41,905 nt of DNA from a virus. The notes beneath the pieces were generated by a model that saw nothing but the letters and a program-made list of their open reading frames with translations, had not been told where the DNA came from and did not search any database. The stretch's first letter is position 1; each line of letters begins with the position of its first letter. This document shows, in pieces, positions 3,909-41,249 of this stretch. The translations under genes were made by a program, and so were the position numbers. The stretch spans positions 1 through 41,905 of the IMG/VR virus record IMGVR_UViG_3300029684_000017; one strand, given 5' to 3'.

Positions 3909-4046
3909 ATGCCAGCCGGTAAATTCGTAAACGGCAAGTTGTGCAAGCTCGTATTTTGCAAGTACATCCGTAAGAATGGCAAGATCATTTATCCTAAAAA
4001 AGCGAAGGCTTTCAGGATTTGGGTGCCGGTCAATAATGCGGCTTAA
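3909..4046 (+). CDS. Small, very basic protein (45 aa) in reverse orientation inside the leftward arm
   Basis: ATG at 3909 (the ORF track starts at a TTG at 3861). Reads MPAGKFVNGKLCKLVFCKYIRKNGKIIYPKKAKAFRIWVPVNNAA. Followed by its own terminator. Confidence 0.5.
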   Translation: MPAGKFVNGKLCKLVFCKYIRKNGKIIYPKKAKAFRIWVPVNNAA

Positions 4047-4058
4047 CAAGTTACCGTC

Positions 4059-4088
4059 GTGGAGTGGTAGGACACTCCACTTTTATTT
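4059..4088 (+). terminator. Rho-independent terminator
   Basis: Stem gtggagtg / cactccac, 6-nt loop, then ttttattt. Confidence 0.7.
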
Positions 4089-4280: not shown

Positions 4281-4351
4281 TTGAGCTACCCGGATTCGAA
4301 CCGGAAGCGCCACCTCCAAAGGGTGATGTGTTACCGTTACACCATAGCTCA
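4281..4351 (-). tRNA. tRNA-Gln (anticodon UUG)
   Basis: Cloverleaf folded by hand. Acceptor TGAGCTA/TAGCTCA, anticodon stem TCACC/GGTGG, loop CTTTGGA, T-arm TCCGG-TTCGAAT-CCGGG. No encoded CCA. Confidence 0.85.
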
Positions 4352-4499: not shown

Positions 4500-4584
4500 C
4501 GGAGGGTGAGAGATTCGAACTCCCGAAGCGTTGCCGCTCGCCGGATTAGTAAGCCGGAGCCTTCAACCACTCGGCCAACCCTCC
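4500..4584 (-). tRNA. Type-II (long variable arm) tRNA, Ser-like, apparent anticodon ACU with a mismatched 31-39 pair
   Basis: GGAGGGT acceptor, GCC/GGC D-stem, anticodon arm CCGGC-TTACTAA-TCCGG, variable stem GAGCG/CGCTT, T-arm GGGAG-TTCGAAT-CTCTC, discriminator G. Confidence 0.7.
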
Positions 4585-6617: not shown

Positions 6618-6661
6618 TTTATGCTCATATTTTTACAAGTTTTTTAATAGTCCCTTTGTAT

Positions 6662-6958
6662 ATGATTGATTTCAAACGTTTTCGAAAAGACAAAAGGTTA
6701 ACACAGGCGGCACTTGCAAATATGTTGGGAATGGATCAAAGCCGCATTTCTCGAATGGAGAAGAACGGCGACGGATTTACGCCTGAGCATATGGACATAT
6801 TATGCAGTCGATATGCCGACATTGACGATTACGTTATCGACGACTCCAATGTCGCCCCCGCTCCCACGGTTTCCGCATTGCTGGCTTTGGTAGCTTCCCA
6901 GCAGCGCACCATCGAGAACCTTTCCGAAACCATAAAAAACCTAACTTCAAAGAACTGA
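6662..6958 (+). CDS. XRE-family HTH repressor-like protein
   Basis: KRLTQAALANMLGMDQSRISRMEKNG is a classic XRE/Cro-CI HTH. ATG at 6662 (the track starts at a TTG at 6656). Confidence 0.8.
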   Translation: MIDFKRFRKDKRLTQAALANMLGMDQSRISRMEKNGDGFTPEHMDILCSRYADIDDYVIDDSNVAPAPTVSALLALVASQQRTIENLSETIKNLTSKN

Positions 6959-8114: not shown

Positions 8115-8528
8115 ATGAGCACAATCGTAGAGCGCATAAATATCTATGCAAAACACAAGAAAACAACCAAAGCAGCTATTGAGCGAGAATCAGGGTTGCC
8201 GAATGGAACATTTAAGCCCACTACCCAATCGCTACGCATAGACGCCCAATCTAAAATAGCAAAATCATTTCCCGATTTAAATATCGGGTGGCTATTGACC
8301 GGCGAAGGATCAATGCTTAAAACTACCGACCAACCCGTCAGTCAAAGAGAAGAAGACGCAACACTTTCGGAAACTGACTTAAATAATTCAAACACTATGA
8401 AGAAGTATTTAGACCAAGTCCTTCGACAAAACGAGGAACTAATTCGGCAAAATGGGGTACTACTTGACCTATTCCGAGAAGAGAGGGCAAAAAACAAGGG
8501 CGAAGTCGCCCTAAAAAAAGAGGGCTAA
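8115..8528 (+). CDS. HTH transcriptional regulator with a C-terminal coiled coil (repressor-like, Bacteroidetes type)
   Basis: TTKAAIERESGLPNGTF ... NIGWLLTGEGSM signature. C-terminal helical region. Confidence 0.8.
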   Translation: MSTIVERINIYAKHKKTTKAAIERESGLPNGTFKPTTQSLRIDAQSKIAKSFPDLNIGWLLTGEGSMLKTTDQPVSQREEDATLSETDLNNSNTMKKYLDQVLRQNEELIRQNGVLLDLFREERAKNKGEVALKKEG

Positions 8529-9066: not shown

Positions 9067-9516
9067 ATGAAGAAACTTTTACTATTTTCCGTATGTATGG
9101 CTATTTTATGTTCATGTAACTCCAATCAGAAGAAAGCCGAACGATTGGTAAAACAATACATGAAAGAAAATCTCGACGACTATAAAAGTTACGAGCCTAT
9201 TAAATTTTCAGAACTTGAACCGATCCTGATAAAAGAACAAGCGGAAAAAGTTCTTAAAGTAGCAATAGATCATAAAAAAAGCCGCGAAGATTATATATAT
9301 TACTTGGATTCAACCCAATTAAAGGAACAGTTAGCATACATCGCTTCAATAGATACTGATATAGATTCGTTAAAAAGGGTTTGCGATTCAGCATCCGTTA
9401 ATGACATTCACGGTTGGTGCTTTGAGCATTCATACCGTTCTGCCAATAAAATAGGAGCAATGGAGAAAAAAACAGAAATATTTTATTTCAATAGAGATAT
9501 TACCGAGATTCAATAA
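9067..9516 (+). CDS. Lipoprotein (149 aa)
   Basis: Signal peptide MKKLLLFSVCMAILCSC with a lipobox Cys followed by NSNQKK. Confidence 0.8.
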   Translation: MKKLLLFSVCMAILCSCNSNQKKAERLVKQYMKENLDDYKSYEPIKFSELEPILIKEQAEKVLKVAIDHKKSREDYIYYLDSTQLKEQLAYIASIDTDIDSLKRVCDSASVNDIHGWCFEHSYRSANKIGAMEKKTEIFYFNRDITEIQ

Positions 9517-9534: not shown

Positions 9535-9561
9535 CGCCCCGACTTCTGCCGGGGCGTTTTT
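9535..9561 (+). terminator. Rho-independent terminator
   Basis: Stem cgccccg / cggggcg, 8-nt loop, ttttt. Confidence 0.75.
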
Positions 9562-9584
9562 ACCCAAAGTGTAGAATAATTCAC

Positions 9585-9604
9585 TACCTTTGCGCGTTAT
9601 TTGC
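9585..9604 (+). promoter_or_regulatory. Third TACCTTTG -7 box with a downstream inverted GCAAAT core
   Basis: tacctttg at 9585-9592; atttgc at 9599-9604. Confidence 0.5.
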
Positions 9605-9641
9605 TCGGAAAATGTTATATTTGTAACAAAGAACCACTACT

Positions 9642-10280
9642 ATGCTTGAAACTATTTGGAGCTGGATCATGGAAAACTACCCCGGCATATTCGCAATGCT
9701 GGTGGTTGCATATGCTGTATGGCATATAAGAGGATGGTATTCCAAATTCGACGCAAGGGTGAAAGCATGTGAAGCCCACGAACCAGCCATTGAGGAGATA
9801 AAAAACGACGTGAAAACCCTACAAAAGGATATTGACAGCGTTAAAATGGATGTGAAGAGTATCAAAGATTATTTGGTAACAAAAGATCAAAAAGCAATAA
9901 ACGTTTTAGCGATGAAAAATAGCCCGATGGTTCTCAATGAGAACGGAAAGCAGATATATGAAATTATAGTAGGTGATAAATTCCTCGCTGATAATAAGAC
10001 GCTTTTATTCGAGCGTATCGATAGTAAAAAACCTCGCACTCCGCTGGATGTAGAGATTGCAGCCAAAGAGGTGCTTATTGACCTCTTGAGTAGCCCCATA
10101 TTTGATGGAATTAAAAACATAGTATACAATTATCCATCGATTCAAATTAAACAAGAGGGCAAAGACATCGATTATGCTATTTCCATATCAGATGTATGCT
10201 TCGTGTTAAGTATTCCTTTGCGCGATATGTATCTGGAAGCGCACCCGGAAATAAACACGAAGGATAACGATAACAAATAG
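9642..10280 (+). CDS. Membrane-anchored coiled-coil protein with an uncharacterised C-terminal domain (212 aa)
   Basis: TM segment YPGIFAMLVVAYAVWHI, heptad-like IEEIKNDVKTLQKDIDSVKMDVKSIKDYL, and a globular C-terminal half. Confidence 0.7.
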   Translation: MLETIWSWIMENYPGIFAMLVVAYAVWHIRGWYSKFDARVKACEAHEPAIEEIKNDVKTLQKDIDSVKMDVKSIKDYLVTKDQKAINVLAMKNSPMVLNENGKQIYEIIVGDKFLADNKTLLFERIDSKKPRTPLDVEIAAKEVLIDLLSSPIFDGIKNIVYNYPSIQIKQEGKDIDYAISISDVCFVLSIPLRDMYLEAHPEINTKDNDNK

Positions 10281-10303
10281 CGATAACACCGAACACCCAT
10301 CGA

Positions 10304-10331
10304 CCCCGGGCCACGAGCTCGGGGATTTTTT
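10304..10331 (+). terminator. Probable terminator
   Basis: ccccg...cgggg stem followed by atttttt. Confidence 0.55.
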
Positions 10332-10454
10332 GTACATATTGAACAATAAATCGCCTTGAAGCAGGCTTTTCCCCTAAGAAAAACACAAACTTTTTGAACA
10401 ATTCACCCCATCAATCCCCTGGCCACAAAAAAAATCTGAAAATTTTTCGTCGAA

Positions 10455-10518
10455 CTCTTGCATAATGTGCCGAGAGTTGGCTCCTTTGCATCGTAAGGCT
10501 ATGAAGATATAGCCCACG
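10455..10518 (+). promoter_or_regulatory. Late-type promoter-like element, copy A (TTG, 20 nt, CTCCTTTG, plus a conserved initial transcribed region)
   Basis: About 60 nt align with 24724-24788 (17/18 identical in tcttgcaNaatgtgccga) and partly with 29853-29915. Confidence 0.55.
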
Positions 10519-10602
10519 GACAAGACGAGCGGTAGCATCCGCGAATCTTAACGACGAAAGGACACGTTGTAGGACACACGTTGTTGGTAGTAGTTCTTGG
10601 AA

Positions 10603-10640
10603 GGGTCTGTGGCTATTCATCCGGCCGCAGACCCTTTTTT
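10603..10640 (+). terminator. Strong intrinsic terminator ending 2 nt before the terS start codon
   Basis: 11-bp stem gggtctgtggc / gccgcagaccc (one G-U pair), 10-nt loop, tttttt. ATG at 10643. Confidence 0.8.
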
Positions 10641-10642
10641 CT

Positions 10643-11152
10643 ATGGCAAAGAGAACGGAAGGAATCAAGAAGACAACCGGCAACAAGCCCACCCGCAAAG
10701 TGGGCCGCCCTCGTGCATATACCCCCGAAGCTCTTGAAGCCAAGTTCGAAGAGTATGTCGAATGGGTGAAAGCGAATCCGCGATACAGCAACAAGGTATT
10801 GGGCGACGGCTCGATAATTCCCGTACCCTATGAACGCCCGCTGACATTGTCCAGCTTCGCCGTATTCGCCGGGATAATCCCTGATACATTCAGAGAATAC
10901 GAGAAACTCGACGAGTTTTTCGGCGTGTGTGCGCGCGTGCGCGCGCGAATCGAATCCGATCAGTTGGAGGGTGCTATGTGTGAGCAGTACAACCCGACGA
11001 TTGCGTCGCGTGTTCTTCATCTTGCCGACCGCCAGGATGTGACAACAAACGGCAAGGCGATAACGGTTGCAACACAGCCTATTCCCGTGGTCCTCGATCC
11101 CGAAGCTGCTAAGATCATCCAGTCCATAGGCAAAATGACAGTAAAGGAATGA
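10643..11152 (+). CDS. terS: Terminase small subunit
   Basis: GRPRAYTPEALEAKFEEYVEWVKANP...PLTLSSFAVFAGI..DTFREY pattern of Terminase_2-type small subunits. Immediately precedes terL. Confidence 0.8.
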   Translation: MAKRTEGIKKTTGNKPTRKVGRPRAYTPEALEAKFEEYVEWVKANPRYSNKVLGDGSIIPVPYERPLTLSSFAVFAGIIPDTFREYEKLDEFFGVCARVRARIESDQLEGAMCEQYNPTIASRVLHLADRQDVTTNGKAITVATQPIPVVLDPEAAKIIQSIGKMTVKE

Positions 11153-12384
11153 CGCCCGATCCCGTAACATACAGAGGCAAGACATACAAAGTCAAAATGT
11201 ACCTCTACCAGCTATACGCCGGGAGCGGCGCCGTCGTCCGTATCTTCGACGAGGGAAGTTCCCGATCTGGAAAGACTTTCGACACGGCGGACTTTCTGTA
11301 TGACATCTGCGCATCATCGTCCGTACCTCTTAAAATATACTGTTATCGGGCCACGCTTCAAGATTGCAAGGAAAAGACGCTGGACGACTTCCGCAAGAAG
11401 CTGCAACTACGCGGCGTATACGATCCCGATTGTATGCGTGGCGAAAATATTCTCCCTGAATATCGCATCAAGGATAGTGTGATTCGTTTCCGGGGTCTCG
11501 ACAAAATGGATGTCAAAGAGGGCCACGACTGCGACATAGTATATTTCAACGAGATGCTCGACGGTGTAAGCCGTGCGCAATTCGACAATATCACCATGCG
11601 CTGCACGCGGATGGTCATCGGTGACTGGAACCCGAAATACACGGAGCATTGGGCGTTCCATATGGAGGGCGCCCCGGATACTATTTTCACGCACACGACG
11701 TACAAGGATAATCCCTTCTGCCCGGCGGGGGTTCGTCGCACAATTGAGGGATACGAACCCACACCCGAGAATATCGCCGCCGGAACTGCCGACGAATGGC
11801 GTTGGAAAGTGTACGGCCTCGGAGTACGTGCCGCGCAGGAGGGGCTAATATTCCCCGACATCGACTGGATCGACGAATTCCCCGAAGACATCGAACGCGT
11901 TGTATTGGGCCTCGACTTCGGATTCACAGCAGACCCCACAGCCTGCGTACGTGTCGGATTCCGTGTCCCGAACCATCTTTATTTGCAGGAGCTGATATAT
12001 CAGCCTATCGACGACACTTCGAAATTGTATGCAGCGCTTTCGCCGCACTTCACAAACGGAGTATCCCGATGCTATGCAGATAGCGCCGACAAATATGCCA
12101 AATCCCCCGAAAGCATGATAACCGCAATGCGCATTCAAGGGCTTACGGTCATCCCCGTGCGGAAATACCCGGGGTCTGTCATGGACGGCATCACGGCCAT
12201 GAAAGGATGCAAGATACACTGCATTCGTTCGCGCAACATGCTGATAGAGGCAAATTCGTACGTGTGGGAGACGGTGAACGGCATCGCCATAAATTACCCG
12301 CACGACGAATTCAATCACCTATGGGACGCCGCCAGATATGCCGTTCAGTCTGAATTCAAGAACCTTATTCAAATAGCTGCATAA
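11149..12384 (+). CDS. terL: Terminase large subunit (PBSX-like family)
   Basis: Walker A GSSRSGKT, 411 aa, ATGA overlap with terS. Confidence 0.9.
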   Translation: MTPDPVTYRGKTYKVKMYLYQLYAGSGAVVRIFDEGSSRSGKTFDTADFLYDICASSSVPLKIYCYRATLQDCKEKTLDDFRKKLQLRGVYDPDCMRGENILPEYRIKDSVIRFRGLDKMDVKEGHDCDIVYFNEMLDGVSRAQFDNITMRCTRMVIGDWNPKYTEHWAFHMEGAPDTIFTHTTYKDNPFCPAGVRRTIEGYEPTPENIAAGTADEWRWKVYGLGVRAAQEGLIFPDIDWIDEFPEDIERVVLGLDFGFTADPTACVRVGFRVPNHLYLQELIYQPIDDTSKLYAALSPHFTNGVSRCYADSADKYAKSPESMITAMRIQGLTVIPVRKYPGSVMDGITAMKGCKIHCIRSRNMLIEANSYVWETVNGIAINYPHDEFNHLWDAARYAVQSEFKNLIQIAA

Positions 12385-13625
12385 TGAATCTATTCGGCTA
12401 CGAAATACGCAAAAAGAGCAACGATACAGCCCCTAAATTGCCGGTATCGACATTGAATTATATCTGTGTACCTCCGGTATTTCAGGAGTCAATCGAAACC
12501 ATCGGGATAATCAACACCAACGATAAGGCAGGCCAAGCTAAGGCTTATACTCTTTGTTCACCGTTAATGTCGGTTATAACGAAGAAATGCGCAGCGATCA
12601 AGAACCTACGCCTTGCCGCTACCACCGAGGATGGCGAAGATATTGAAAAGCCGGACGCAATACGAGCTATGTCGCATCCGAACAGTATTCAGAATATCGC
12701 GAACTTTGTGGCATGCGTCGAGGCCATGACGCAGATTTTCGGCAAAGCCTATATCGCACGCATGGAAGCCGTTGGACTTCCGGGAGAATTTGGAATATTC
12801 GTCGTGCCGAATCTTTTCGTAACGGAGAACACCGCAACATCACCAACACCATCGCTTATCCCTGATGCGAACATTGTGGACTATACCGTAACTATTTGCG
12901 GAGCTTCGATGAAGATTGCCAAGGAAGATATGTTCATCGTGCGGGACGCCTCGTATGATCTCAACGCCTGCGGCGGCAGCATCTCTCGAATGATTGCGTT
13001 GCAGAAGCCTATCAATACGTTCGTTGCCTCCTATGAAGCGACGCACGAACTAATGATAAACCGCGGTATGCTGGCAATCATCTCGCTTACCTCCGGAAGC
13101 GGTGACATTATCCGGGATTCCCGACTTCCGGAAACAGAGTCCGAGAAAAAGAAAATAGAGCAGGCGTTCAAGAAGAAGTACGGAATGTTGGTCGATCAGG
13201 TACACTATGCCGTTACGCCCATGAATGCCGCCGTAAGCCCGGTATCATCCACAATTACCGACTTAGGGCTGACGGATGTTCAGAAATCATGCAAGAAAGA
13301 GATTGCCGATGTCTACCAAGTGCCGAGCGTGCTGCTCGACGTAGAAGGTTCGACATACGCCAACGCCAAAGAAGCGAAAACGATACTGTACAATGACGCA
13401 ATAATCCCCGAGGCAAATAATATATTCTCCGTGCTCAACAAGATATACGGCTTTGAGGATTTCAAGGTGATGCCCTACTACGATCATCTTGAACTCTTCC
13501 AAGAATCTAAGCGCGAACAGGCGGCGGGCATGACCAATCTCGTGAATGCCCTGAATAACGCCGTGTCCGGCGGTCTGATGACCACGGAGCAGGCTAAAAC
13601 AGAACTTTTGAAATATATCGTATAA
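12384..13625 (+). CDS. Portal protein
   Basis: 413 aa directly after terL. YQVPSVLLDVEGSTYANAKEA...IIPEAN region typical of HK97-type portals. Confidence 0.8.
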   Translation: MNLFGYEIRKKSNDTAPKLPVSTLNYICVPPVFQESIETIGIINTNDKAGQAKAYTLCSPLMSVITKKCAAIKNLRLAATTEDGEDIEKPDAIRAMSHPNSIQNIANFVACVEAMTQIFGKAYIARMEAVGLPGEFGIFVVPNLFVTENTATSPTPSLIPDANIVDYTVTICGASMKIAKEDMFIVRDASYDLNACGGSISRMIALQKPINTFVASYEATHELMINRGMLAIISLTSGSGDIIRDSRLPETESEKKKIEQAFKKKYGMLVDQVHYAVTPMNAAVSPVSSTITDLGLTDVQKSCKKEIADVYQVPSVLLDVEGSTYANAKEAKTILYNDAIIPEANNIFSVLNKIYGFEDFKVMPYYDHLELFQESKREQAAGMTNLVNALNNAVSGGLMTTEQAKTELLKYIV

Positions 13626-13626
13626 C

Positions 13627-14328
13627 ATGAACTTATCTCAGCAAATAGAAGCACGCCGGGCGGCAATGGGCAATGCCTGCCGCAAAGAGTTCGCCGTTAC
13701 AAAAGCGGACATATCGAACGAAGACGAGCATATTATCCTCGTGAAGTTCGCTAATTTCGGGAACAAGGACAGCGCGGGCGATATTCTTATCAAAGGATGC
13801 TTCGCCAAGTCCATTAACGACAGGGGCCCGGAATCAGCCACAAACCGCAAAATCGCGTTCGTGTGGCAACATGATTTCGCCGACCCTATCGGCCGGATAC
13901 TGTCTATCGAAGAGCGCGAAGACGGCGCATATGCAGAAGTTAAGCTGAGCAACTTCGACGCGGTGCCAAATGCAAAGCGGGCGTGGTTCCAGCTCAAAGA
14001 CGGCGATATTAATCAGTTCTCGTTCGGATTCAATTACGTGTGGGATAAAATGGAATATGACGAAGCCCTTGACGCGTTCATCGTTAAGGAAGTCGTGTTG
14101 CATGAAATATCCGTCGTTACTGCCGGAGCCAACGAGGAAACTGCATTCGTCGGTGCTGTGAAGAGTTTACCGGACGCCATCAAGGTTATGAGCGATGCAC
14201 TCAATGCGGCGTCATTGGAGGATAAAATGAAGATCAAAAAGCAAATCATCGAGACATTGAACGCAGCCGAGCCGGAGAAACCACTCACTGAGAACATGTT
14301 CGGGAAAATAGGTTCACATATCAATTAA
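13627..14328 (+). CDS. HK97-family prohead protease (S78-like)
   Basis: DSAGDILIKGCF, WQHD..PIG, FSFGF and EISVVTAGAN motifs. Lies between portal and capsid. Confidence 0.85.
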   Translation: MNLSQQIEARRAAMGNACRKEFAVTKADISNEDEHIILVKFANFGNKDSAGDILIKGCFAKSINDRGPESATNRKIAFVWQHDFADPIGRILSIEEREDGAYAEVKLSNFDAVPNAKRAWFQLKDGDINQFSFGFNYVWDKMEYDEALDAFIVKEVVLHEISVVTAGANEETAFVGAVKSLPDAIKVMSDALNAASLEDKMKIKKQIIETLNAAEPEKPLTENMFGKIGSHIN

Positions 14329-14347
14329 CCAAAAAACACAAAGAAGA

Positions 14348-15640
14348 ATGGAGATTAAATCATTTGTGCTTCCCGCTGGCGTAGAGTTCAGCGAGGACGA
14401 AAAGAAAGGACTGAACGCGCTCGGAGATTACATCAAGGGGCAGTTCGAGGAGATGGTCGCAGGCATCAAGTCACAGAACGAGATCATCGAGGCTGTCAAG
14501 GCGGAGTTCGGAAAACTCGGACTGTCGCCGGAGAAGGTCGAAAAACTGGAGGGCGCGCTTAAAGCCCAGGGCGTCGAGATCGCCACGATGAAGAAAGGCA
14601 CCCCCAAGCAGGAGGGACACAAAACGCTGGTCGCCGCTATGGAAGAGGTGCTGAAATCGGAAGAGTTCGCCGCCGCATATAAGGATATTCGCAGCGGTCG
14701 GGGGAGTCGATCGACGGGTGAATTCGCCCTCAAACTCGACACCTCGAACGTAACGAACGAAGACCCCAACCGCACGGTGTTGACCACGAAAATCTACGCA
14801 GACGCCAGCCCTCGCAATGCGTTCGTGCAACTCTTCTCACGCATCAATGTGCCCGACGACAAGAACCGCATCATGTACAACGACGCCTCCTACACGGACG
14901 GAACCGGGTATGCAGAGGAGATGAAATCGCACACCAACACCGACGCTGCCACGCTTACGGGCAAATACCGTGAGCTGTCCAAGCTCGGCGCCGTGCTGCC
15001 CTTCTCGGCCGAGAGCGCCGAAGATTTCGGCTATTTCCTGGCATGGGCGCAGACGAAAGCACAGCAGGGCATCGCCGCCAAGCTCGACACCCTGCTGTGG
15101 GACGGCGACGGCGTGGACGCCTCGCAGCCCAAGCACATCTACGGATTGAAAAAATCCGGTGTCACGGCATTCAACGCAACGACGACAGGCGTAGCAGCCA
15201 GCGTTTCGGCCCCCAACATCGCCGATCTGATCCTCGCCATGAAGACGCAGGCCAAGGTCGAGACTAACGATTCGATGTCTCCGAATTACGTGCTGATGAA
15301 CTACGCCACCGAGTTCAAGATGCGCACGCTGAAAAATACGCTCGGCGACTACATCACGGTGTTGCCCAATGGCGCGTTGTCGGTTCACGGCATGACGATC
15401 ATCCCGACCCCGAAACTCTCGGCCTCGGAGCTCGTCGTGCTCGATTCCACGACGCTCCAGCTGCACGACAAGCGCAATATCACTATGGAGATCGAGCGCG
15501 TTCCGGAGACGGATTCGTATCGTCTGTGGCTGTGGTATCGCGGGCAGGCCCTCGTTACACGGCCGGATATGAAGGCGAATATCTATGTCGCCGACATCGA
15601 CACCGCTCTGGCCGCCATCGAGAAAGCAGCATCAGAATAG
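14348..15640 (+). CDS. Major capsid protein (HK97-fold inferred)
   Basis: 430 aa after the protease with a coiled-coil N-terminal delta-like region. Confidence 0.8.
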   Translation: MEIKSFVLPAGVEFSEDEKKGLNALGDYIKGQFEEMVAGIKSQNEIIEAVKAEFGKLGLSPEKVEKLEGALKAQGVEIATMKKGTPKQEGHKTLVAAMEEVLKSEEFAAAYKDIRSGRGSRSTGEFALKLDTSNVTNEDPNRTVLTTKIYADASPRNAFVQLFSRINVPDDKNRIMYNDASYTDGTGYAEEMKSHTNTDAATLTGKYRELSKLGAVLPFSAESAEDFGYFLAWAQTKAQQGIAAKLDTLLWDGDGVDASQPKHIYGLKKSGVTAFNATTTGVAASVSAPNIADLILAMKTQAKVETNDSMSPNYVLMNYATEFKMRTLKNTLGDYITVLPNGALSVHGMTIIPTPKLSASELVVLDSTTLQLHDKRNITMEIERVPETDSYRLWLWYRGQALVTRPDMKANIYVADIDTALAAIEKAASE

Positions 15641-15652
15641 GCCAAGTAACCC

Positions 15653-15850
15653 ATGAAAGCGAAAGATGAAGCAGCTATGACGCGCGCGCCTGTTAGGCGC
15701 AGTCGTAGCGCTCCCGAATCTCAGGTCATGCGTGTAGAAGTCATCAAAGCGCATGACGGGATCAACAAGGGCGAGATTCTCATCAAGTCGCGGGCTACTG
15801 CGGAAATGATGATTGCCAAGGGGTTCTATAAAAAGACCTCGGAGGAGTAA
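15653..15850 (+). CDS. Hypothetical small head-module protein (65 aa or shorter)
   Basis: ORF after the capsid gene. Possible internal start. Confidence 0.5.
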   Translation: MKAKDEAAMTRAPVRRSRSAPESQVMRVEVIKAHDGINKGEILIKSRATAEMMIAKGFYKKTSEE

Positions 15851-15853
15851 CCG

Positions 15854-15882
15854 GATAGGGGCGGCAACACGCCGCCCCTATC
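15854..15882 (+). terminator. Perfect 12-bp GC-rich hairpin after the capsid block (terminator/RNA stabiliser)
   Basis: gataggggcggc-aacac-gccgcccctatc. Weak T tract follows. Confidence 0.55.
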
Positions 15883-15897
15883 TTCAAATAAAATACC

Positions 15898-16377
15898 ATG
15901 ATCTTAGACGAGCGATATTTCACCTATCCCGAGACATATATTGCGGGAATAGAGACCAAGAGCGACAGCAAACCCGCCGGACCTGCCCCCAAAATCATAA
16001 GCGACATCCAGGCATATATCGCCAAATACGAGCCTCGGTTTCTGCGAATGCTTCTGGGGCCGGATGTCGCCGGCAATATTGAGGATTACCCGGCTATTGT
16101 GGCGCTGCTGGCGCAACCGGACAAGGGGACATCCGTAATTGCCAAATATGTCTATTTCTACTATTCGCGCGACCATATGACATTCAACACCGTTGCCGGG
16201 GAAAAGCTGAAGAACACCGAAAACAGTACCCGGACATCTCCGACGCATCGGCTCGTCCGCGTGTGGAACGATATGGTAGACGAATGCCGAGAGATCATCC
16301 GCATCGTTGACGATGTTAAGCTGTGCCCGGACTTTTACGCGGAGATATTCGAACCGATCAATACTTACAACCTATGA
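15898..16377 (+). CDS. Hypothetical head-tail joining module protein (159 aa)
   Basis: ORF; function guessed from position only. Confidence 0.65.
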   Translation: MILDERYFTYPETYIAGIETKSDSKPAGPAPKIISDIQAYIAKYEPRFLRMLLGPDVAGNIEDYPAIVALLAQPDKGTSVIAKYVYFYYSRDHMTFNTVAGEKLKNTENSTRTSPTHRLVRVWNDMVDECREIIRIVDDVKLCPDFYAEIFEPINTYNL

Positions 16378-17033
16378 AGATAACCCCCAAAGATACGGTT
16401 AATGATATTGTGATGCGCAACCGTGCATTATTCAGCATGGGTACCGAACGTATCGTAAAAGCCATCCAAGACCTTCCGGAGCCGGAGTTCGTGCCTATGA
16501 AACGCCGAATGTGGCTCGACAAACGACTGCCCGTGCGTGACATTGCCGACATCACTATGGGCGAACTGAACGCCATAGAAGCCCGAAAACCGTCGTACGA
16601 ATATTTTTGCATCGTGCTCGGTGTGATGCTCGGGCTCGTGAAATTCAACCGCATAGGCGTTGACGGCAATCCGGATTGGAACGCGGGGTTCAGCGTAGAC
16701 GAGGAGCAAATCGGACGCCTCCGGTTCATCCGTGCCCAGCGCTATTTCATAGCTATACAGAAAGGGTTGGAAGGTATCGGCAAATCGTGGAAAAAGCTGG
16801 AAATGCCCCTCACGGCCGCCGAGATGAAAGCGCGTGTCAAGCGACCCAATCGCGGACTTGTCGCCGTATGCCGGAAATACTGCCAGATCATGAACGGCGC
16901 CGTTGACATGAATAAAGCATGGAATACGCCGTGGGCAACAGTATACGAAGCATTCGAAGCCTGCAAGTGCGACAACATGGAACAGCGGGCCATCTATGAA
17001 GCGAACAAATCTAACGGGAGACGGAGAAGATGA
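16374..17033 (+). CDS. Hypothetical structural-module protein (219 aa)
   Basis: ATG overlapping the upstream TGA (ATGA). Confidence 0.7.
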   Translation: MKITPKDTVNDIVMRNRALFSMGTERIVKAIQDLPEPEFVPMKRRMWLDKRLPVRDIADITMGELNAIEARKPSYEYFCIVLGVMLGLVKFNRIGVDGNPDWNAGFSVDEEQIGRLRFIRAQRYFIAIQKGLEGIGKSWKKLEMPLTAAEMKARVKRPNRGLVAVCRKYCQIMNGAVDMNKAWNTPWATVYEAFEACKCDNMEQRAIYEANKSNGRRRR

Positions 17034-17446
17034 AAAAAAGCATCAACGAGATATTCAGAGAATGCGCCGAGGCGGAGGGACTGTGTTCCTATATGTACGC
17101 CCGGATAGCCGAAGCTAATTATCTGATGGATGACGTAAAGCAATACCCCGTATTGCTCCGTCAGTTCAACGAGACGATTTCCGAAACACGGATGTCGGAC
17201 ACGCGGCGCCGGACGACGACGCTCTATTTCTGCGACGCCCTCGGGAAAGCGGAGCCGGACACGGAGACCGAAGTGCAGCCAATCGTCGAAAAGATGGAAG
17301 AACGCGCCTTTGCATTTATCAACCGGATGCGGTCGATGGGGATAGAGGTCGAGCTTGTGGCCAACGCGACGCCCTTTTACGGCAAATTCGACGTGTTGGT
17401 GGCTGGCGTAACCCTAAGCGCTATTATGACCTATAACATCTGCTGA
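17030..17446 (+). CDS. Hypothetical structural-module protein (138 aa)
   Basis: ATGA overlap. Confidence 0.7.
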   Translation: MKKSINEIFRECAEAEGLCSYMYARIAEANYLMDDVKQYPVLLRQFNETISETRMSDTRRRTTTLYFCDALGKAEPDTETEVQPIVEKMEERAFAFINRMRSMGIEVELVANATPFYGKFDVLVAGVTLSAIMTYNIC

Positions 17447-17447
17447 T

Positions 17448-18011
17448 ATGCCCACCATCCGGCAAATAGAAGAGGTGTTCAGCCCCGAGCGGATCATCAC
17501 CATCTGCGAGGACGAGTTCGGGCCGCTCGCCGAACAGATCGCCTTTAACATAATGACCAAAAGGACCAACAGCGGCGCCGATGTCAACGCTTTGGGGCTC
17601 CCGGAGGAAACGACCGGAGCGACGGCCGAAAGCCTTAAAACCATCCATGAATCTACGAACGGCGGACTTACGGTCTCATTTGTCGGACGCAAAGGCATCA
17701 AGAATATCGACGAGGGAAGTTCCCCGCAAGACGTGCAGGATGAGTTCGGCAGTTTCGGGGCCTTTCTGAATGCCATCGAGCGGTGGGCGCGAGCCAAAGA
17801 ATCGCGGTGGAATCTCGAACCAAGATCGATAAATGCGTATGGCGTTGCTTCGAGCGTCTGGGAGCATGGAAACGTACTCCATCAGGAGGGCGGCGGAACG
17901 GAGATCATGAAAGACCTGCTGCCTGAAGTTGTCGAAAGGATCAGCGAAAGAATCACGGAGGAGCTCGACACCTCCATTTATAAACTATTAGATGCGACGA
18001 TAGATATATGA
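17448..18011 (+). CDS. Hypothetical structural-module protein (187 aa)
   Basis: ORF 1 nt after the previous stop. Confidence 0.7.
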   Translation: MPTIRQIEEVFSPERIITICEDEFGPLAEQIAFNIMTKRTNSGADVNALGLPEETTGATAESLKTIHESTNGGLTVSFVGRKGIKNIDEGSSPQDVQDEFGSFGAFLNAIERWARAKESRWNLEPRSINAYGVASSVWEHGNVLHQEGGGTEIMKDLLPEVVERISERITEELDTSIYKLLDATIDI

Positions 18012-19459
18012 AAACTATTTGGGGAGGGGATAATTCAATAACGGTGCCTAATACCTTTTTCTGCACCAAAAGCCGATACGCATACGTCAAGGTGGCATTA
18101 GAAGAGGCTGTGCGCAATCAAGATGTAACCCTCGAAGTTTACTACGTGGGCAATTCTGTTAATAATATCGTCAATGGCTCCCATGCCAATTGGGTTGCGG
18201 CAAAATTAAATGCTTCGTGTTTCGACGCAGTCAATAGCATGATTTATATCGACCATACGTTAATACGAGGGAAACAGATCACTTATAGAGTAGAACTGAA
18301 AGGAGAGGCTGCGGAAGCTACGCAACTGGGATTTGAAATCAAAGTGCATTTCACGGATAACACGGATCAATGGATTGCACGATACTCGACAGTCGATATC
18401 CCGGAGCGGGGGACCTTTGAGAAAGCATATACTTTCAGTTCACAGATTCAAGATAAAGAGATCGAATATGCGCGAATGTATCCGGTATTCAGATCATTGA
18501 GTGGGGGCGAAGTGTCCGGAAAACTTTATATGCGACATGAATTTGTCGGCGTGGGGAATGTATTGCCCTCTACATGGTACCCATCTGTCGCAGATCAAGA
18601 GGTGAAAAAAATAACCATTGCCCGCAAAACCGATGATCGGGGCGTCGCAATATTCCCCATCGGCGCGGTGTGCGAGTCTTTGGTAAAGGAGTACGGCGAA
18701 GGTATTGTCGTGATGTTCAACGCCTCCTATCCGGGCGGAGGTGTCGGATACTCGTCGCGTCCGATTGTCGGATATGCTGACTATGAAATCAAAGCCCTCA
18801 ATGTGGAAGCCAAAGGCGACACGAATGCCACCAACTACCCGGCGGCGAAAAAGATAGTCATATATCCTTATGGAATGTTTCGTCAAACCGTATTCGTCCC
18901 GGCGTCCAATGCCGTTACATTGAGTGATCCCGAACGGCAATTAACATTCGCCCAAGAGATTGGGCCATATATTGAATTCGACCCTGTGTCTGTAGAAGAT
19001 TTGGATTATACGCCGACAGCTTTGATGGCTTCTATACTATATGACGCAGGGGACGAGATGTCTATATCTATCCCCGTAAAAGTTGACCTGTGCACAAGCG
19101 GCGTATTCCTCAAATGGATCGACAAATCGGGTATCCCGTATGTATACCGATGGACCCCCGAGATGACGACCGACGAAATGTCCGTAGATTCCACCTATAC
19201 GCAACTCGATGAAACCCTCCAGCCTTTCGAGGTTCAGAACAAGACCCTAACCAAGCGATACACCTTGCACAGTCGAATCGTCGAGCGGGATATATACGAG
19301 ATGTGCAAAACCATCATCGGAAGCCAGGCAGTGTGGATGTGGGATACTACCCTTTCCGATTGGGTGCGCTGCTCTATGGAGGACAGCGAAGCCGAGGACA
19401 GCGGAGCTCCGATGCAAGACCTGGTTATTGAAGTCGTAAAACGCGAGTACAACCTATGA
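18008..19459 (+). CDS. Hypothetical virion/tail protein (483 aa)
   Basis: Long ORF with ATGA overlap. Confidence 0.75.
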   Translation: MKTIWGGDNSITVPNTFFCTKSRYAYVKVALEEAVRNQDVTLEVYYVGNSVNNIVNGSHANWVAAKLNASCFDAVNSMIYIDHTLIRGKQITYRVELKGEAAEATQLGFEIKVHFTDNTDQWIARYSTVDIPERGTFEKAYTFSSQIQDKEIEYARMYPVFRSLSGGEVSGKLYMRHEFVGVGNVLPSTWYPSVADQEVKKITIARKTDDRGVAIFPIGAVCESLVKEYGEGIVVMFNASYPGGGVGYSSRPIVGYADYEIKALNVEAKGDTNATNYPAAKKIVIYPYGMFRQTVFVPASNAVTLSDPERQLTFAQEIGPYIEFDPVSVEDLDYTPTALMASILYDAGDEMSISIPVKVDLCTSGVFLKWIDKSGIPYVYRWTPEMTTDEMSVDSTYTQLDETLQPFEVQNKTLTKRYTLHSRIVERDIYEMCKTIIGSQAVWMWDTTLSDWVRCSMEDSEAEDSGAPMQDLVIEVVKREYNL

Positions 19460-22302
19460 CGACCTACGAACTTTATATCAACGATATTCTGTGCGACCTG
19501 TCGAGTGACGAGGTCATAACCCTGCTTTATCAAAGTCCGATCTTTTCGAGCCTCGACAGTATTCAGTCGAACCGATCTTATAACATTGCGCTGCCTCCCA
19601 CGCCTGCGAATATGCGGGCTATCGGTCAGGCAGCCCGCCCGGATGTGGATGCCGACGCTCCCTATGTGCGCCTTCCGGCGGCATTGTATCAGGACGGGGT
19701 GCCGCTGTTCACGCAGGGGTTCGCCGTGGTTACGGATATTGCGGACACTATCAACGTGACCCTCACGTGGGGCAACGCGGACAATTTCCAGCCTTTGTTC
19801 GACGCGAATCTGCGGGATTTGACCATATATATTCCTGCTCCGGAAGGTGCAGAGGGTGATTGGGTTTCTTATATAGAGTGGAACGAGAATACACAATTAT
19901 TGGATTCCACAGGAGAAGAACCCGATGCGGCATTTTGGGCGATTAATTTCGGAATGGGGCTTTCCAATCCCAAATACCTGCACCCATCGGTTCCGGTATC
20001 TGCCATATTGGGATATATCGAAGAGTATAACGGGATTACTATCGACGGGAAAGATCGCCTTGCGTACAGTCCGCACGGCGGCCCTATTATACCGCTGGTT
20101 TCTAAGAACGGGGATGAAATATCAAATAAGACAGAGGCATTCACTTTTATCGCAGCCCTCACGACGCTGAAAGATGACCAGATTCAAGGTGTTATCGGCT
20201 GGTCGTCTGTTATTCAAGACCAGCAAGGAATTGCATACGGGAAGTGCACGGTGAAATTCGACAAAGGAAATAGGAAAGTCAGAATATCTATGACGCCATC
20301 CAACGGGGCCGATACATTCACTATCAACGTAGGGACATATCTGCCAGCATCAGAGATCACAGGCTTTGCGATTGTAGTTTTAGTTTGGAAAGAAGATGTA
20401 TCCGATTGGGAAGTATTGCAACCCATAGCCGAAGCGTCGTCTTTTTCCAACGTGGGAGGCGGTGGCGACTACTTAACATATACGGCCACTTTTTACCCGT
20501 TCGAAACGTCATTTGATATATTCGAAAACACCGAAATAGCGTTCCATATCGTCGCGTACGGCGGTTTGATATATAACAATAATAGCATTTCAAATGCTCC
20601 CACGGTCCGAGTATGGACCGATTGGGAAGATTGCGCGTTCCCTACAAAATTCCCTATTGCTCCCAACCTCCCCGACATCTCACAAGGCGATTTTATCCTC
20701 GCCATGATGAATATGCAGGGGCTGTTCGCCTATGCGGACAAAGACAACCCGAACACGATAAAGTTGATAAGCATCGACGACATAATCGCCAATGTTCAGA
20801 AAAACGACATCATAGACTGGAGCGACCGGGTAATTCTGAATGATATTCACCGGGTGGATATGCCCGATGCGTCGGTTTTCACCATTGACGACCTCGCGCA
20901 AAGCAATATTCTCGACTACGACAACGACGACGATGTAAAGACCGACACGCACGGCACCATTACCATTCGTAATGAGAATATCGAAAAAGAAACCGAACTT
21001 GTGTCGCTTCCCTTCTCAGCATCGGAAAATGCGACGACGGCGGGATTAGATCGGCCGTGCGCCCTCGTCCCCATATATGAGGATGACAGCAAAGGAGGTG
21101 CCAATTATTCGGAGTGTTCACCGCGGATATTATCGGTTAGAGGTGGATATTATAATACCATTGATATAAAAGCCATCGGCGTTTTCGACCCGTGGATGAA
21201 GTTCGGCGGCGAAAATGGCATCGTGAAGACCCGATACGCCTCCTATCAGAAAGTCGTTGACCGCCTCAGGATCATCACCGTCCGGGCAAAACTCACAGCT
21301 CTCGATCTCTATAACCTCGACTACACGAAGCCGGTGTATATCGCCCAATTCGGGCAGATATTCGCCATCTATTCGGTCGAAACGGGCGAGGACGGCATTT
21401 GCGACTGCCAACTGCTGAGGTTGAAAGTAGACGGGGTTGTGCCTGCCCACTACTACCTGTATTTGGACGGTAAGGACGCCGACCAAAGCAAGACCGACAT
21501 AACATCTGCCGGAACAACTATTACGTATAGTGTTCAGTCGAACGGTACGCCCTATGTAGTTTCAAAAGACAGCCGTTTAACGGTGTCGCTCAACAGCGAA
21601 GCCGATACGTGGGAGCTCTCCATATATGTTCCTGAAAACACTTCAGGCGCAGGTATCAATTACGACCCCGTCATTCTTGGTATCAGCGAAGCCGACCATG
21701 TGCGCCGGAAAATAAGTATATCGCAGAAAGGCAAAGAATACTATCTGACGCTCAATGGCAGCGTCAGAGATATATTAATCAATATCAAAGCCGATGCCAA
21801 GCAAAATCGCGTATCTTGGAGTTCTAACGGAACACCTCAAATATTGAGCTATTCCGGAGACGCCGTCGCCCTCGCTGAGGTAGATGCCTATGCTGTCAAT
21901 ATTTATTCATATGCCAACACTACCAGCGAGCAAAGAACAGGACAGGTGACGGTATATCTTAAAGAATCCCCATCAATAGAGCGTAAAATTGTTGTGATAC
22001 AGGATGCGGCCGCAGCAGAGCGCATGGTCATCATCGACGTGCACGCCTGCGGAGTCGAGGCCAGTGAAAATATGTATCTCGCGTTCTATTTGAACGATGG
22101 TAACGACGGTTATGCGGAAGATACATTTGCGGTTCAAGATGATTTAACCATCCGAATACCATTCAATGACCTCAATATGCTTTTAGGGCTCAATTTTTCC
22201 GATTTCGCAGGCGCAACCCTCAGAATTGAAGCCTCGGATAGCGGAGAATTCTGGGAGGGGCCAATCCCTGCCTCCGGGAACATCGAGGCTGAATTAGTTT
22301 AG
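19456..22302 (+). CDS. Large tail/baseplate-type structural protein (948 aa)
   Basis: Longest ORF with ATGA overlap. N-terminus YINDILCDL...SNRSYNIALPPTPANMRAIG resembles phage tail-associated proteins (memory only). Confidence 0.7.
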   Translation: MTTYELYINDILCDLSSDEVITLLYQSPIFSSLDSIQSNRSYNIALPPTPANMRAIGQAARPDVDADAPYVRLPAALYQDGVPLFTQGFAVVTDIADTINVTLTWGNADNFQPLFDANLRDLTIYIPAPEGAEGDWVSYIEWNENTQLLDSTGEEPDAAFWAINFGMGLSNPKYLHPSVPVSAILGYIEEYNGITIDGKDRLAYSPHGGPIIPLVSKNGDEISNKTEAFTFIAALTTLKDDQIQGVIGWSSVIQDQQGIAYGKCTVKFDKGNRKVRISMTPSNGADTFTINVGTYLPASEITGFAIVVLVWKEDVSDWEVLQPIAEASSFSNVGGGGDYLTYTATFYPFETSFDIFENTEIAFHIVAYGGLIYNNNSISNAPTVRVWTDWEDCAFPTKFPIAPNLPDISQGDFILAMMNMQGLFAYADKDNPNTIKLISIDDIIANVQKNDIIDWSDRVILNDIHRVDMPDASVFTIDDLAQSNILDYDNDDDVKTDTHGTITIRNENIEKETELVSLPFSASENATTAGLDRPCALVPIYEDDSKGGANYSECSPRILSVRGGYYNTIDIKAIGVFDPWMKFGGENGIVKTRYASYQKVVDRLRIITVRAKLTALDLYNLDYTKPVYIAQFGQIFAIYSVETGEDGICDCQLLRLKVDGVVPAHYYLYLDGKDADQSKTDITSAGTTITYSVQSNGTPYVVSKDSRLTVSLNSEADTWELSIYVPENTSGAGINYDPVILGISEADHVRRKISISQKGKEYYLTLNGSVRDILINIKADAKQNRVSWSSNGTPQILSYSGDAVALAEVDAYAVNIYSYANTTSEQRTGQVTVYLKESPSIERKIVVIQDAAAAERMVIIDVHACGVEASENMYLAFYLNDGNDGYAEDTFAVQDDLTIRIPFNDLNMLLGLNFSDFAGATLRIEASDSGEFWEGPIPASGNIEAELV

Positions 22303-22332
22303 TTATTAACCATTTAACCCATATGAAGAGAT

Positions 22333-24723: not shown

Positions 24724-24788
24724 TTCTTGCACAATGTGCCGAAGGTTAGCACCTTTGACGCGAACGCTTATGAGGATATAAGCCGCGG
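24724..24788 (+). promoter_or_regulatory. Late-type promoter-like element, copy B (TTG, 20 nt, CACCTTTG)
   Basis: Aligned by eye to 10455-10518. Confidence 0.5.
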
Positions 24789-24884: not shown

Positions 24885-25463
24885 ATGGCAGTACAAACAT
24901 GCACCACTACGCTCGGGCGGGACATTCTCAACGACTGCAACGAGCCCCACGCTAAAGGCGTGGAAAAGTTTTTCTATTTCATCTCCCGGGATGCTATCGA
25001 CTGGGACAAATCCACGCGCGAGGACTTCATGATTACCAACTTGGTGGCTCTGACCGGCAAGCGTGGTTACAAGGTCCGGAACCCGTCGAATGAAACCCCG
25101 GCGATCACCATCACAGACCAAAACCCGAGCATCGACACCGCGTGGGACAAGGTTCTGCCCGTTACCCTCTTGGCCGACAGCCCGGAGAACGCCGCCGCCA
25201 TCATGGGGCTCAAGCAGGACAAATACGTCTGCATTTACGAGAACATGGAGAAAGGCGACGCAGGTAAGCAGGCGTTTGTCGTCATCGGCTGGGAGCAGGG
25301 CGCAACAGGTGTAGACCTGAACATGGACAAGAGCGGGGACACCGGCGGCTGGACAGGCAACATTACCGAGACCGGAGCCCCGACGTCGCAACTGTTCTTC
25401 TACAAGACGGACTACGCAACGACGAAGGCGGCCCTCGAATCGCTGTGTTCGGCAGCGTCCTAA
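24885..25463 (+). CDS. Hypothetical virion protein (192 aa; tail-tube-sized) with its own promoter-like element
   Basis: ORF about 100 nt downstream of copy B. Confidence 0.65.
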   Translation: MAVQTCTTTLGRDILNDCNEPHAKGVEKFFYFISRDAIDWDKSTREDFMITNLVALTGKRGYKVRNPSNETPAITITDQNPSIDTAWDKVLPVTLLADSPENAAAIMGLKQDKYVCIYENMEKGDAGKQAFVVIGWEQGATGVDLNMDKSGDTGGWTGNITETGAPTSQLFFYKTDYATTKAALESLCSAAS

Positions 25464-29545: not shown

Positions 29546-29857
29546 ATGCGTAAAACAGAGCTTTTTGCACAAATACTTAAAACCGTTGCAAATGAAACGG
29601 AATTGACGCCCGAGCAAATCCTTTCGTGTTGTCGCACGGCCGAAACGGTCGATGCGCGTTATATGCTCGTCTACCTGTTAAAGCGCGAAGGCATATATAT
29701 CGGTGAAATAGCCCGCATGATGAACTTCTCCCGCCGGGGTGTCGAAAAGATGCTGTCGCAGTTCGAAGATCGCCGCATTCAAAGCGGACGTATTTTCGAA
29801 TTGGCGTTCGAACGTATTGCGAACAAAGTGCGCATAACCTCCGAATCATCCCATTGA
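29546..29857 (+). CDS. DnaA-domain-IV-like HTH protein (103 aa)
   Basis: LTPEQILSCCRTAETVDARYMLVYLLKREGIYIGEIARMMNFSRRGVEKML resembles the DnaA C-terminal DNA-binding domain pattern. Confidence 0.55.
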   Translation: MRKTELFAQILKTVANETELTPEQILSCCRTAETVDARYMLVYLLKREGIYIGEIARMMNFSRRGVEKMLSQFEDRRIQSGRIFELAFERIANKVRITSESSH

Positions 29858-29915
29858 TCACCTTGCCGAACTGGGTCACCTTTGCATCGTAGCTACGGTA
29901 TGAAGGCTATCTCAA
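29853..29915 (+). promoter_or_regulatory. Late-type promoter-like element, copy C (TTG, 20 nt, CACCTTTG)
   Basis: cacctttgcatcgta matches copy A (ctcctttgcatcgta). Overlaps the 3-prime end of the preceding gene. Confidence 0.45.
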
Positions 29916-33380: not shown

Positions 33381-33575
33381 CGGGATAGTATTTAAGTGGT
33401 GGTGCAAGTTTAGCTTTTTTGCACCACACAACCAAATACAAATGTCCTTATTTGTCCGGAGTTGTCACAAATAAAACCACGTAAAACACGGAGGCTCAAA
33501 TATAAAAGCAAAATAGACAACAAGATACAAATGCGCCGACGGACAGCAATGTGGCCGCGGTGGGGCTACAATACG

Positions 33576-39317: not shown

Positions 39318-39327
39318 AGCTTTCGTG

Positions 39328-40320: not shown

Positions 40321-40341
40321 AGTTGTTGGTAGTTGTGATTG

Positions 40342-40755: not shown

Positions 40756-41249
40756 AGCTCGTCCGGGATATGATACCGTGCCTTGTCCACTTTGAGCACC
40801 CAGCTGGGTTTCTCGGCCCCATTGATGCGTATCGGAGCGTAATCGTCCGTGCTGCCGCCGTTCCGAGCTACTTCATTACACATCGCAGAATACGTCAGAA
40901 TCCGACATTTCACATCAATGCCCAGGATGTCGGCGATCGTCAGCCGTTTGTACGTAAACGTGTCCAGTACCCTGTTCAGGGCATATTCCAGCCGCTTCCC
41001 GCTCATCCCCGTCTTCCCGATACGCTCGGCAAGGATGGAGAAGAATTCGCTCGACATATCCGGGAAACATACGGACAGCTTATGCACCGCCGTGGCGATA
41101 TGTGCCGTCGATGCCGGAGGCCCGGCAAGTACGGATACCTCCTCACTCCCACTCTTGGCGAGTGTGAGCGCGAGAGATTCCTTCGGCGACAGCCCGAGCG
41201 AGTTCATCAGGGCTTGGGGGTTGATTCTTTGTACTTCGTCCATAGTCAT
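40752..41249 (-). CDS. Hypothetical replication-module protein (165 aa)
   Basis: ORF with ATGA overlap downstream. Its 5-prime end overlaps the replication gene by about 107 nt, so the start is uncertain. Confidence 0.55.
   Translation of the reverse strand: MTMDEVQRINPQALMNSLGLSPKESLALTLAKSGSEEVSVLAGPPASTAHIATAVHKLSVCFPDMSSEFFSILAERIGKTGMSGKRLEYALNRVLDTFTYKRLTIADILGIDVKCRILTYSAMCNEVARNGGSTDDYAPIRINGAEKPSWVLKVDKARYHIPDEL

Follow-up and report, generated by a model that had tools for sequence, protein, structure and literature searches.

Late genes of phage lambda, and likewise of phages 21, 82 and the Stx phages, lie behind the PR'-qut-6S RNA-tR' region, in which a promoter, a short non-coding leader and a strong terminator stand before the genes, and where the Q protein, bound to promoter DNA, engages RNA polymerase paused close to the promoter and renders it resistant to termination. 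Other described systems that invite comparison with the locus analysed here are lambda N at nut (boxA/boxB) and HK022 put; LicT at RAT (BglG family) and TRAP at the trp attenuators; Mu C, P2 Ogr/P4 Delta and the RinA/ArpU/LtrC proteins of Gram-positive terS promoters (PMC3152322); and two cases in which a promoter-proximal terminator yields a short RNA beside a read-through mRNA, namely the Escherichia coli greA leader, where two thirds of the transcripts terminate constitutively to give the GraL RNAs (PMC2836576), and the short terminated PR' transcripts that act as the small RNA StxS (PMC7547250). Late-gene control is essentially uncharted in temperate phages of the Bacteroidales, the bacterial order that predominates in the human gut; a first-pass annotation made from the present sequence had remarked that late control of this kind is not known to have been worked out for Bacteroidales phages, and our literature search likewise found no description of it. 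The DNA analysed is IMG/VR virus record IMGVR_UViG_3300029684_000017, positions 1 to 41,905 (hereafter "the window", meaning the whole of this 41,905-nucleotide (nt) stretch), and the element in question is the control region at 10458-10642, directly upstream of terS (10643-11152, plus strand), the first gene of the packaging and head operon.

This region consists of a late-type promoter followed by a non-coding leader of ~150 nt, whose 3' end is an intrinsic terminator. The feature is real, conserved and selected as RNA (below), and we read it as a conditional terminator in the leader of the late operon that would be controlled through the nascent RNA, a reading from sequence to which we give a probability of about 0.45. 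The terminator (10599-10640) has a 16-pair stem followed by U6; the core of the hairpin (10603-10634) is made of the 5' arm GGGTCTGTGGC (10603-10613), a loop (10614-10623) and the 3' arm GCCGCAGACCC (10624-10634), which form 11 bp including one G.U pair, and it is followed by T6 (10635-10640), CT (10641-10642) and the terS ATG (10643). ViennaRNA extends the stem to 16 pairs (10599-10638) with a folding energy of -27.7 kcal/mol (z = -6.6), and 0 of 200 shuffled sequences were equally stable; it is the strongest hairpin in the region, its upstream neighbours (the terminators at 9535 and 10304) having energies of about -15 kcal/mol. The opposite strand folds more weakly (-20.2 kcal/mol) and has no T run. 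The element thus has by sequence the parts of an intrinsic terminator, a GC-rich stem-loop with a U tract immediately 3' of it on the transcribed strand, and our consensus terminator scan skipped it solely through that scan's 8-nt loop limit. The U tract and its following CT leave no room before the ATG, so that no terS transcript can avoid crossing the terminator. The first-pass annotation had placed an 11-bp hairpin plus T6 at 10603-10640, 2 nt before the terS ATG, and had argued that any transcript reaching the packaging and head genes must read through it; the coordinates are exact, and the argument stands on both the 2-nt gap and the presence of a dedicated promoter upstream of the hairpin. 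A leader peptide ORF (open reading frame; TTG at 10581) running across the terminator was rejected as a candidate, since T-run lengths of 5-8 leave no conserved frame.

The hairpin, a run of T5-8 and an ATG 2-3 nt later are kept in 40 of 40 close relatives, whose terS genes are 80-97% identical. Mean pairwise identity within this window-type clade falls from 96.8% in the terminator, 94.7% in the promoter and 92.5% over the whole leader to 89% in terS, 84% at terS third codon positions and 79% in the DNA upstream of the promoter. The layout of promoter, 5'-proximal stem-loop (P1, below) and terminator is also found in five further leader classes in other phages (cited here by L number), two extra classes having been found with a covariance model. 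The L139/L175-type leader precedes a 93-aa ORF, a ParB-like nuclease gene and terL, and L175 carries a second copy after its portal gene, so that its two leaders (3937-4072 and 9190-9316) stand one before packaging genes and one before head genes; the L123/L125/L340 type and a second site in L121 lie 47 nt before scaffold-like and major head genes; and the L114-type leader precedes an excisionase-like ORF. A tract of U5-8 is retained in five of the six classes, that of L114 being weak. Pattern scans of viral and metagenome contigs for more classes returned only the known ones, one new variant (L340) and chance matches. Distant terS relatives have terS straight after a tail gene and are leaderless, so the module is portable and not tied to terS.

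Selection on the transcript is visible in the way the paired positions vary. Across relatives, 98.8% of the cells of the terminator stem are paired, with 4 of 12 pairs changed on both sides and five showing one-sided wobble changes, and in the P1 helix, aligned over 16 diverse leaders, 97.9% of cells are paired and 4 of 6 pairs are changed on both sides (slid controls, 18-50%). Taken together over the six classes, P1 and the terminator are 98.4% paired with seven pairs changed on both sides; 0 of 500 shuffles reached the observed paired fraction or covariation score, and slid controls gave 33-51%. Within a class, variants exchange U-A or C-G for U.G without ever disrupting a pair, and many of the changes over the six classes are U-A to U.G or U.G to C-G. 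Such wobble changes work only in plus-strand RNA, and several closing pairs of P1 are U.G, so it is the plus-strand RNA on which selection has acted.

These patterns bear on the possibility that the conserved sequence is a DNA-level packaging signal (cos, pac or a terminase binding site), as its position directly upstream of terS, its direct repeats and the ends of some viral contigs nearby (L005, L035) might suggest. We consider this very improbable: the G.U pairs and the strand asymmetry reflect selection on RNA, the direct repeat is not conserved, the module is also found ahead of head genes at a distance from terS, with two copies in one phage, and the contig ends do not cluster at one position.

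The promoter of the leader (copy A, 10458-10488, plus strand) reads TTG(-33)-N7-TGCCGA-N7-CTCCTTTG(-7), and its spacing matches the -33/-7 geometry of Bacteroides promoters, that is, it is sigma-A-like. Its -7 box has no TA of the host consensus TAnnTTTG (PMC7366714). The same arrangement, TTG-N7-TGCCGA-N7-CnCCTTTG, is shared by three sites in the window (10458, 24727 and 29854), and the -7 boxes of these late promoters uniformly lack the TA that ordinary promoters of this phage have (for example TACCTTTG at 9585-9592). The spacer of copy A contains a palindrome, GCATAATGTGC (10460-10470), which appears as GCACAATGTGC in most relatives and is a candidate operator for a dimeric regulator; promoter B has its spacer palindrome at 24729-24739 (A/B consensus GCA(C/T)AATGTGC), and in the variant GCACGACGTGC symmetry is kept through a symmetric double change. 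A different palindrome, TCACGTGA, is seen in the second leader of L175. Upstream of copy A, the A/T-rich stretch AAAAAAAATCTGAAAATTTTTCG (10427-10449, plus strand) is conserved between window-type and L139-type leaders and is possibly an UP-like element. On these sequence features A, B and C look like a late promoter set under a dimeric DNA-binding regulator. Helix-turn-helix (HTH) proteins encoded at 8115-8528, conserved upstream in window-type and L139-type phages, and at 6656-6958 are candidates for this regulator and nothing firmer.

Several late promoters with a common motif over the upstream box and a defective core, one of them directly upstream of terS, are also features of the Mu C, P2 Ogr/P4 Delta and RinA/ArpU/LtrC systems. 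To our knowledge, no such system is known in which a terminator-bearing leader follows the activated promoter. In IMG/VR, a scan located the promoter motif in more than 100 stretches, where the leaders it heads precede terS, ParB-like nuclease, KilAC/ANT-like, tail, head and tRNA genes; in phage L100 a late-type promoter directly drives a tRNA.

The succession of promoter, short leader, strong terminator and late genes is that of lambda PR', and in both cases a short terminated RNA is the predicted default product. Under a lambda Q-type mechanism a protein would bind the promoter DNA here, join RNA polymerase at a promoter-proximal pause and carry it past the terminator, and the leader would be an analogue of 6S RNA; this was the label that the first-pass annotation had given the locus. 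Besides the layout, it has in its favour that a conserved sequence separates the -33 and -7 boxes, at the place that the Q-binding element occupies in lambda. That sequence is, however, the palindrome described above, which suggests a dimeric regulator more than a Q-binding element. Several other expected parts do not appear. Family similarity searches, which would pass over a Q analogue of unrelated sequence, found no Q-, N- or NusG-like proteins among 39 window ORFs (PHROGs) and subsets of 9 (Pfam, NCBIfam), and on reading +1 to +30 (~10492-10521) we saw no TAnnTTTG-like pause box there, the segment being occupied by P1 and the ACGGAC box; unlike lambda, this locus has a conserved RNA stem-loop at the transcript's 5' end. 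Lambda has one late promoter and the window has three, of which only copy A has a terminator, and no other strong plus-strand terminator was found in the 14-kb operon (10643-24723). The gene directly upstream, in the position of Q, is a mobile gene for a membrane protein that varies among relatives; as an analogue of Q this 212-aa product was rejected for its transmembrane helix and coiled coil, its varied contexts and its replacement by other cassettes. The Q-type label is not supported by this comparison, and we hold a factor loaded on promoter DNA to be improbable.

The repeated segment to which copy A belongs (10453-10520) spans the promoter, as far as the end of the -7 box at 10488, together with the stem-loop that is transcribed first, and for this reason the leader is ~150 nt long and not ~115 nt as had been estimated when the whole of copy A was taken as promoter-like. 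This stem-loop, P1 (10497-10514, GGCUAU-GAAGAU-AUAGCC), begins 8 nt past the -7 box and has a 5-7 bp stem and the loop consensus GANGRN. A basal extension of P1 (UCGU:ACGG) is weakly supported, with only 73% of its cells paired. Directly 3' of P1 comes a conserved (C)ACGGA box, in the window the sequence CCACGGAC at 10514-10521, and further on CGACGAAAG(G)AC; in terminator-less leaders the CGACGAAAG(G)AC motif lies immediately before the ATG. A P1-like stem-loop and a CACGGAC box also occur before a 58-aa ORF in the early region of the close relative L084 (6581-6679, minus strand), terminator-less, and are not present there in the window.

A stem-loop with a purine-rich loop right after the promoter, conserved and present at more than one operon start (A and B), recalls lambda N-nut and HK022 put, and the P1 loop GANGRN may be set beside the lambda boxB loops GAAGA and GAAAA. 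The analogy is structural only: there is no sequence homology, family searches, by which small basic ORFs are not assignable, found no arginine-rich N-like protein, and a series of downstream terminators is absent; P1 also heads terminator-less leaders, and put is made up of two stem-loops, against the single shared P1 here. The terminator in a 5' leader, with an upstream CCACGGAC able to pair with its 5' arm beside a candidate protein-binding hairpin, is what the locus has in common with LicT/RAT and with TRAP at the trp attenuators. It differs from these in that the competing segments are ~85 nt apart and do not overlap, that no PRD, CAT or TRAP-like protein was found, and that the pairing has no statistical support (below).

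Termination in vivo, its regulation and the regulating input, all of which we infer, could fit together as follows. The late-type promoter, with its sigma-A-like geometry, defective -7 box and operator-like palindrome, would start the ~150-nt leader RNA, and by default most transcripts would stop at the terminator and yield a short leader RNA; terS, terL and the portal, protease and capsid genes would be expressed only when termination is suppressed. The suppressing input would most likely act on the nascent leader RNA through the module formed by P1 and ACGGAC, by one of two routes: a structure switch in which the box adjoining P1 pairs with the 5' arm of the terminator, or a modification of RNA polymerase of the N/nut or put kind. 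A lambda Q-type factor loaded on promoter DNA is a less likely route.

For the first of these routes the box is the candidate antiterminator strand, being complementary to GUCUGUGG in the 5' arm (10605-10612). It can form 6-9 contiguous pairs with the arm in five of the six classes, where it is also the arm's best duplex partner, and folding of transcripts that stop short of the 3' arm gives this helix. Substitutions that preserve or improve it are ACGGAC to ACAGAC and GAC to AAC (each turning a G.U into an A-U), and a change of CCAC to CAAC in the box is coupled with GG to UG in the arm (C-G to A-U, one covarying pair); terminator-less leaders have GGAU or GGAA where the others have GGAC. We take the pairing as a testable hint that the sequences give, on thin evidence.

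Several observations weigh against the conditional, RNA-controlled reading. The box:5'-arm helix has 92.9% of its cells paired, but its score is matched in 44 of 500 column shuffles; its energy gain over shuffled leaders is not significant (p = 0.07-0.58); the L123/L340 class has no pairing in the same register and uses a different one; and the ACGG part of the box is conserved in terminator-less leaders too, which implies another role. The PHROGs, Pfam and NCBIfam scans of window ORFs identified no trans-acting factor. Promoters B and C have no terminators, so antitermination is not a requirement of the entire late regulon. Finally, the leader classes share ancestry and so provide only a few, incompletely independent comparisons. 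Profiling of the available (partial) contigs for a trans-acting factor found a single widely shared protein, an HTH protein (cluster 0), and it is not specific to terminator-bearing phages.

The main rival reading is that the hairpin is a constitutive fail-safe or partial terminator that needs no dedicated factor. It would then stop residual read-through and leakage from promoter A in lysogens, and during lytic growth a fixed leak fraction would set the level of terS and head gene expression, the short RNA being a by-product or a small RNA acting in trans. The family scans gave no antiterminator candidate, promoters B and C work without terminators, a processive mechanism is not needed in an operon with no further strong terminators, the alternative pairing lacks significance, and greA/GraL (PMC2836576) and StxS (PMC7547250) are precedents. 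On the other side, a stem of -27.7 kcal/mol followed by U6-8 should terminate efficiently, at a price for the phage's most highly expressed genes, and complementarity between box and 5' arm has been retained in five of six classes. For pure insulation, moreover, a terminator placed ahead of the promoter would be enough, and such terminators exist separately. The early operon upstream ends at the terminator at 9535; the accessory gene that follows has its own promoter (TACCTTTG, above) and its own terminator (10304-10331, plus strand, an 8-bp stem with seven GC pairs followed by ATTTTTT, -15.7 kcal/mol); and L125 has a terminator immediately upstream of the promoter as well as one in the leader. 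Because of these separate upstream terminators, insulation alone explains the leader hairpin poorly, and the earlier point that the accessory gene's terminator is genuine and makes a second one superfluous for insulating that gene was sound. We judge the fail-safe explanation possible and on balance doubtful.

The position of the hairpin also raises the question of whether it acts after transcription. Bacteroides mRNAs have no Shine-Dalgarno sequence and favour A at -3, -6 and -11 to -15 (PMC7366714). The hairpin spans -9 to -40 of the terS start region, which has no A at -3 or -6, and since the hairpin covers these positions of a start that has no A-rich signature, its opening could also free the start region and raise translation. 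If RNA polymerase largely ignored the hairpin, its main function might be to mask this start or to stabilise or process the mRNA, and P1-type stem-loops, which are present on terminator-less leaders, do resemble mRNA stabilisers. Against a mainly post-transcriptional role, U5-8 is kept directly after the stem in five of six classes (weakly in L114), even in L123 and L121, where 47 nt separate the element from the following start codon and masking is impossible, and we see little chance that it is the principal one.

A wider form of the conditional-terminator reading, which we regard as rather unlikely, is that the leaders represent a new family of RNA switches in temperate phages of gut Bacteroidales. 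In such a family the 5' arm of the terminator would face competition from P1 (GANGRN) and the ACGGAC box, with the choice between termination and read-through falling to a phage or host factor able to recognise P1. Opening of the terminator would unmask a start without a Shine-Dalgarno sequence, and several lineages would thereby control their packaging and head modules individually. In any event the leader is a compact cis-element of ~190 bp, conserved and supported by covariation, that combines a promoter with an operator, a 5' stem-loop and a terminator and recurs before packaging and head modules in several lineages. It offers a handle for finding the late regulator or antiterminator, could mark late operon starts in viromes, and might be used in Bacteroides genetics as a tight expression switch under phage control; confirmation of an RNA switch or a new antiterminator would raise the interest of the locus.

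The remainder of the leader is less widely conserved. P2 (10529-10542, GCGG-UAGCAU-CCGC, followed by GAAUCUUAAC) is an insert specific to the window type, its stem invariant and its loop variable, and the other leader classes have no P2; 3' of it the window-type leader continues with GUUGUUGG, a variable stretch and then the terminator. The insert as a whole (10529-10556, P2 plus GAAUCUUAAC) has a faint likeness to boxB-boxA, only six bases matching lambda boxA (CGCUCUUAA). A further helix, P3 (AACGACGA:UUGUUGGU), is supported by inspection in window-type and L123-type leaders only and was set aside. The tandem repeat AGGACAC(AC)GTTGT that had been noticed in the leader is real, and the positions given for it earlier (10562-10570 and 10576-10584) are those of its exact 9-mer core; the full units are AGGACACGTTGT (10559-10570) and AGGACACACGTTGT (10571-10584), and the duplication (10559-10584) copies part of the conserved GACGAAAGGACACGUUGUUGG segment. 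Apart from the window, only a minority of relatives carry it (for example L010, L108 and L083-L086). The single copy seen in most relatives marks it as a recent duplication of 14 nt, not a conserved element, and for the same reason it was rejected as a factor-binding site. Run over the window, the covariance model of the leader recovers a single full copy (153 bits); at copy B it matches only the part near P1. No Rfam family matches the leader: in the window only two tRNAs reach the gathering score, and within 10280-10700 nothing relevant appears at E <= 10.

Promoter copy B with its P1 (24727-24783, plus strand; GCUUAU-GAGGAU-AUAAGC) leads to a tail-region gene at 24885-25463, no terminator following it. 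Copy C (29854-29884, plus strand; TTG-N7-TGCCGA-N7-CACCTTTG) leads to a gene at 29956-30756 and has neither the palindrome, nor a P1 of the A/B type, nor a terminator. Just before copy B, the 3' end of a 796-aa tail gene (24660-24726, ...KLGRKKYE*) is homologous to the sequence directly before terS in distant phages (L041-L082, L001 and L002), among them prophages in Alistipes metagenome-assembled genomes, which have no leader at this tail-gene/terS junction. The location of promoter B at the tail-gene junction suggests, by sequence, module shuffling there.

The accessory gene upstream of the leader (9642-10280) encodes a 212-aa membrane-anchored coiled-coil protein with an N-terminal transmembrane helix, homologues of which adjoin integrases, tail genes or giant polyvalent proteins in unrelated phage contexts. 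The slot that it occupies (9535-10457) varies across relatives (L003-L050, L083-L086) and may hold a transmembrane coiled-coil protein gene, a HicA/HicB-like pair, a three-gene minus-strand cassette or an 81-aa ORF. By its gene content in these genomes, this slot between the early terminator and promoter A is a hotspot for accessory (moron) genes.

With its exact 99-nt direct terminal repeat (1-99 = 41807-41905), the window represents a 41.8-kb genome assembled as a circle; it is that of a temperate siphovirus, with an integrase gene at 32067-33431. A Bacteroidales host agrees with the TAnnTTTG promoters, with a window-encoded protein annotated as from uncultured Parabacteroides, and with copies identical in terS that lie within prophages on scaffolds of up to 208 kb. 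No close relative is present among 50,697 deposited phage genomes, the only match being a 54-nt stretch of terL in Bacteroides phages. The plus-strand block starts with the HTH regulator genes (6656-6958 and 8115-8528), continues with terS, terL, portal, protease, major capsid and tail genes and extends to ~31924; terS itself matches PF16677 (1e-15) and phrog_606 (2e-22), and its N-terminus is conserved among relatives. The Erf, NinB-like, replication and PAPS-reductase-like genes are on the minus strand. The two tRNA genes carried by the phage lie at 4281-4351 and 4500-4584 (minus strand). The PAPS-reductase-like (cysH-like) gene occupies 38439-39569 (minus strand), and cysH is reported to be expressed early in the Bacteroidales prophage LoVE (bioRxiv 10.64898/2026.06.25.734096). 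Next to it, at 39571-40275, is a long array of a 15-nt periodic repeat with at least 33 overlapping copies, inside the overlapping ORFs 39040-40332 (plus strand) and 39328-40320 (minus strand), which may encode a pentapeptide-repeat protein, and at 41611-41654, inside or beside a replication-initiator-like gene (41143-41898), three tandem 11-nt units (TGATTGATCAC-like) may be origin iterons.

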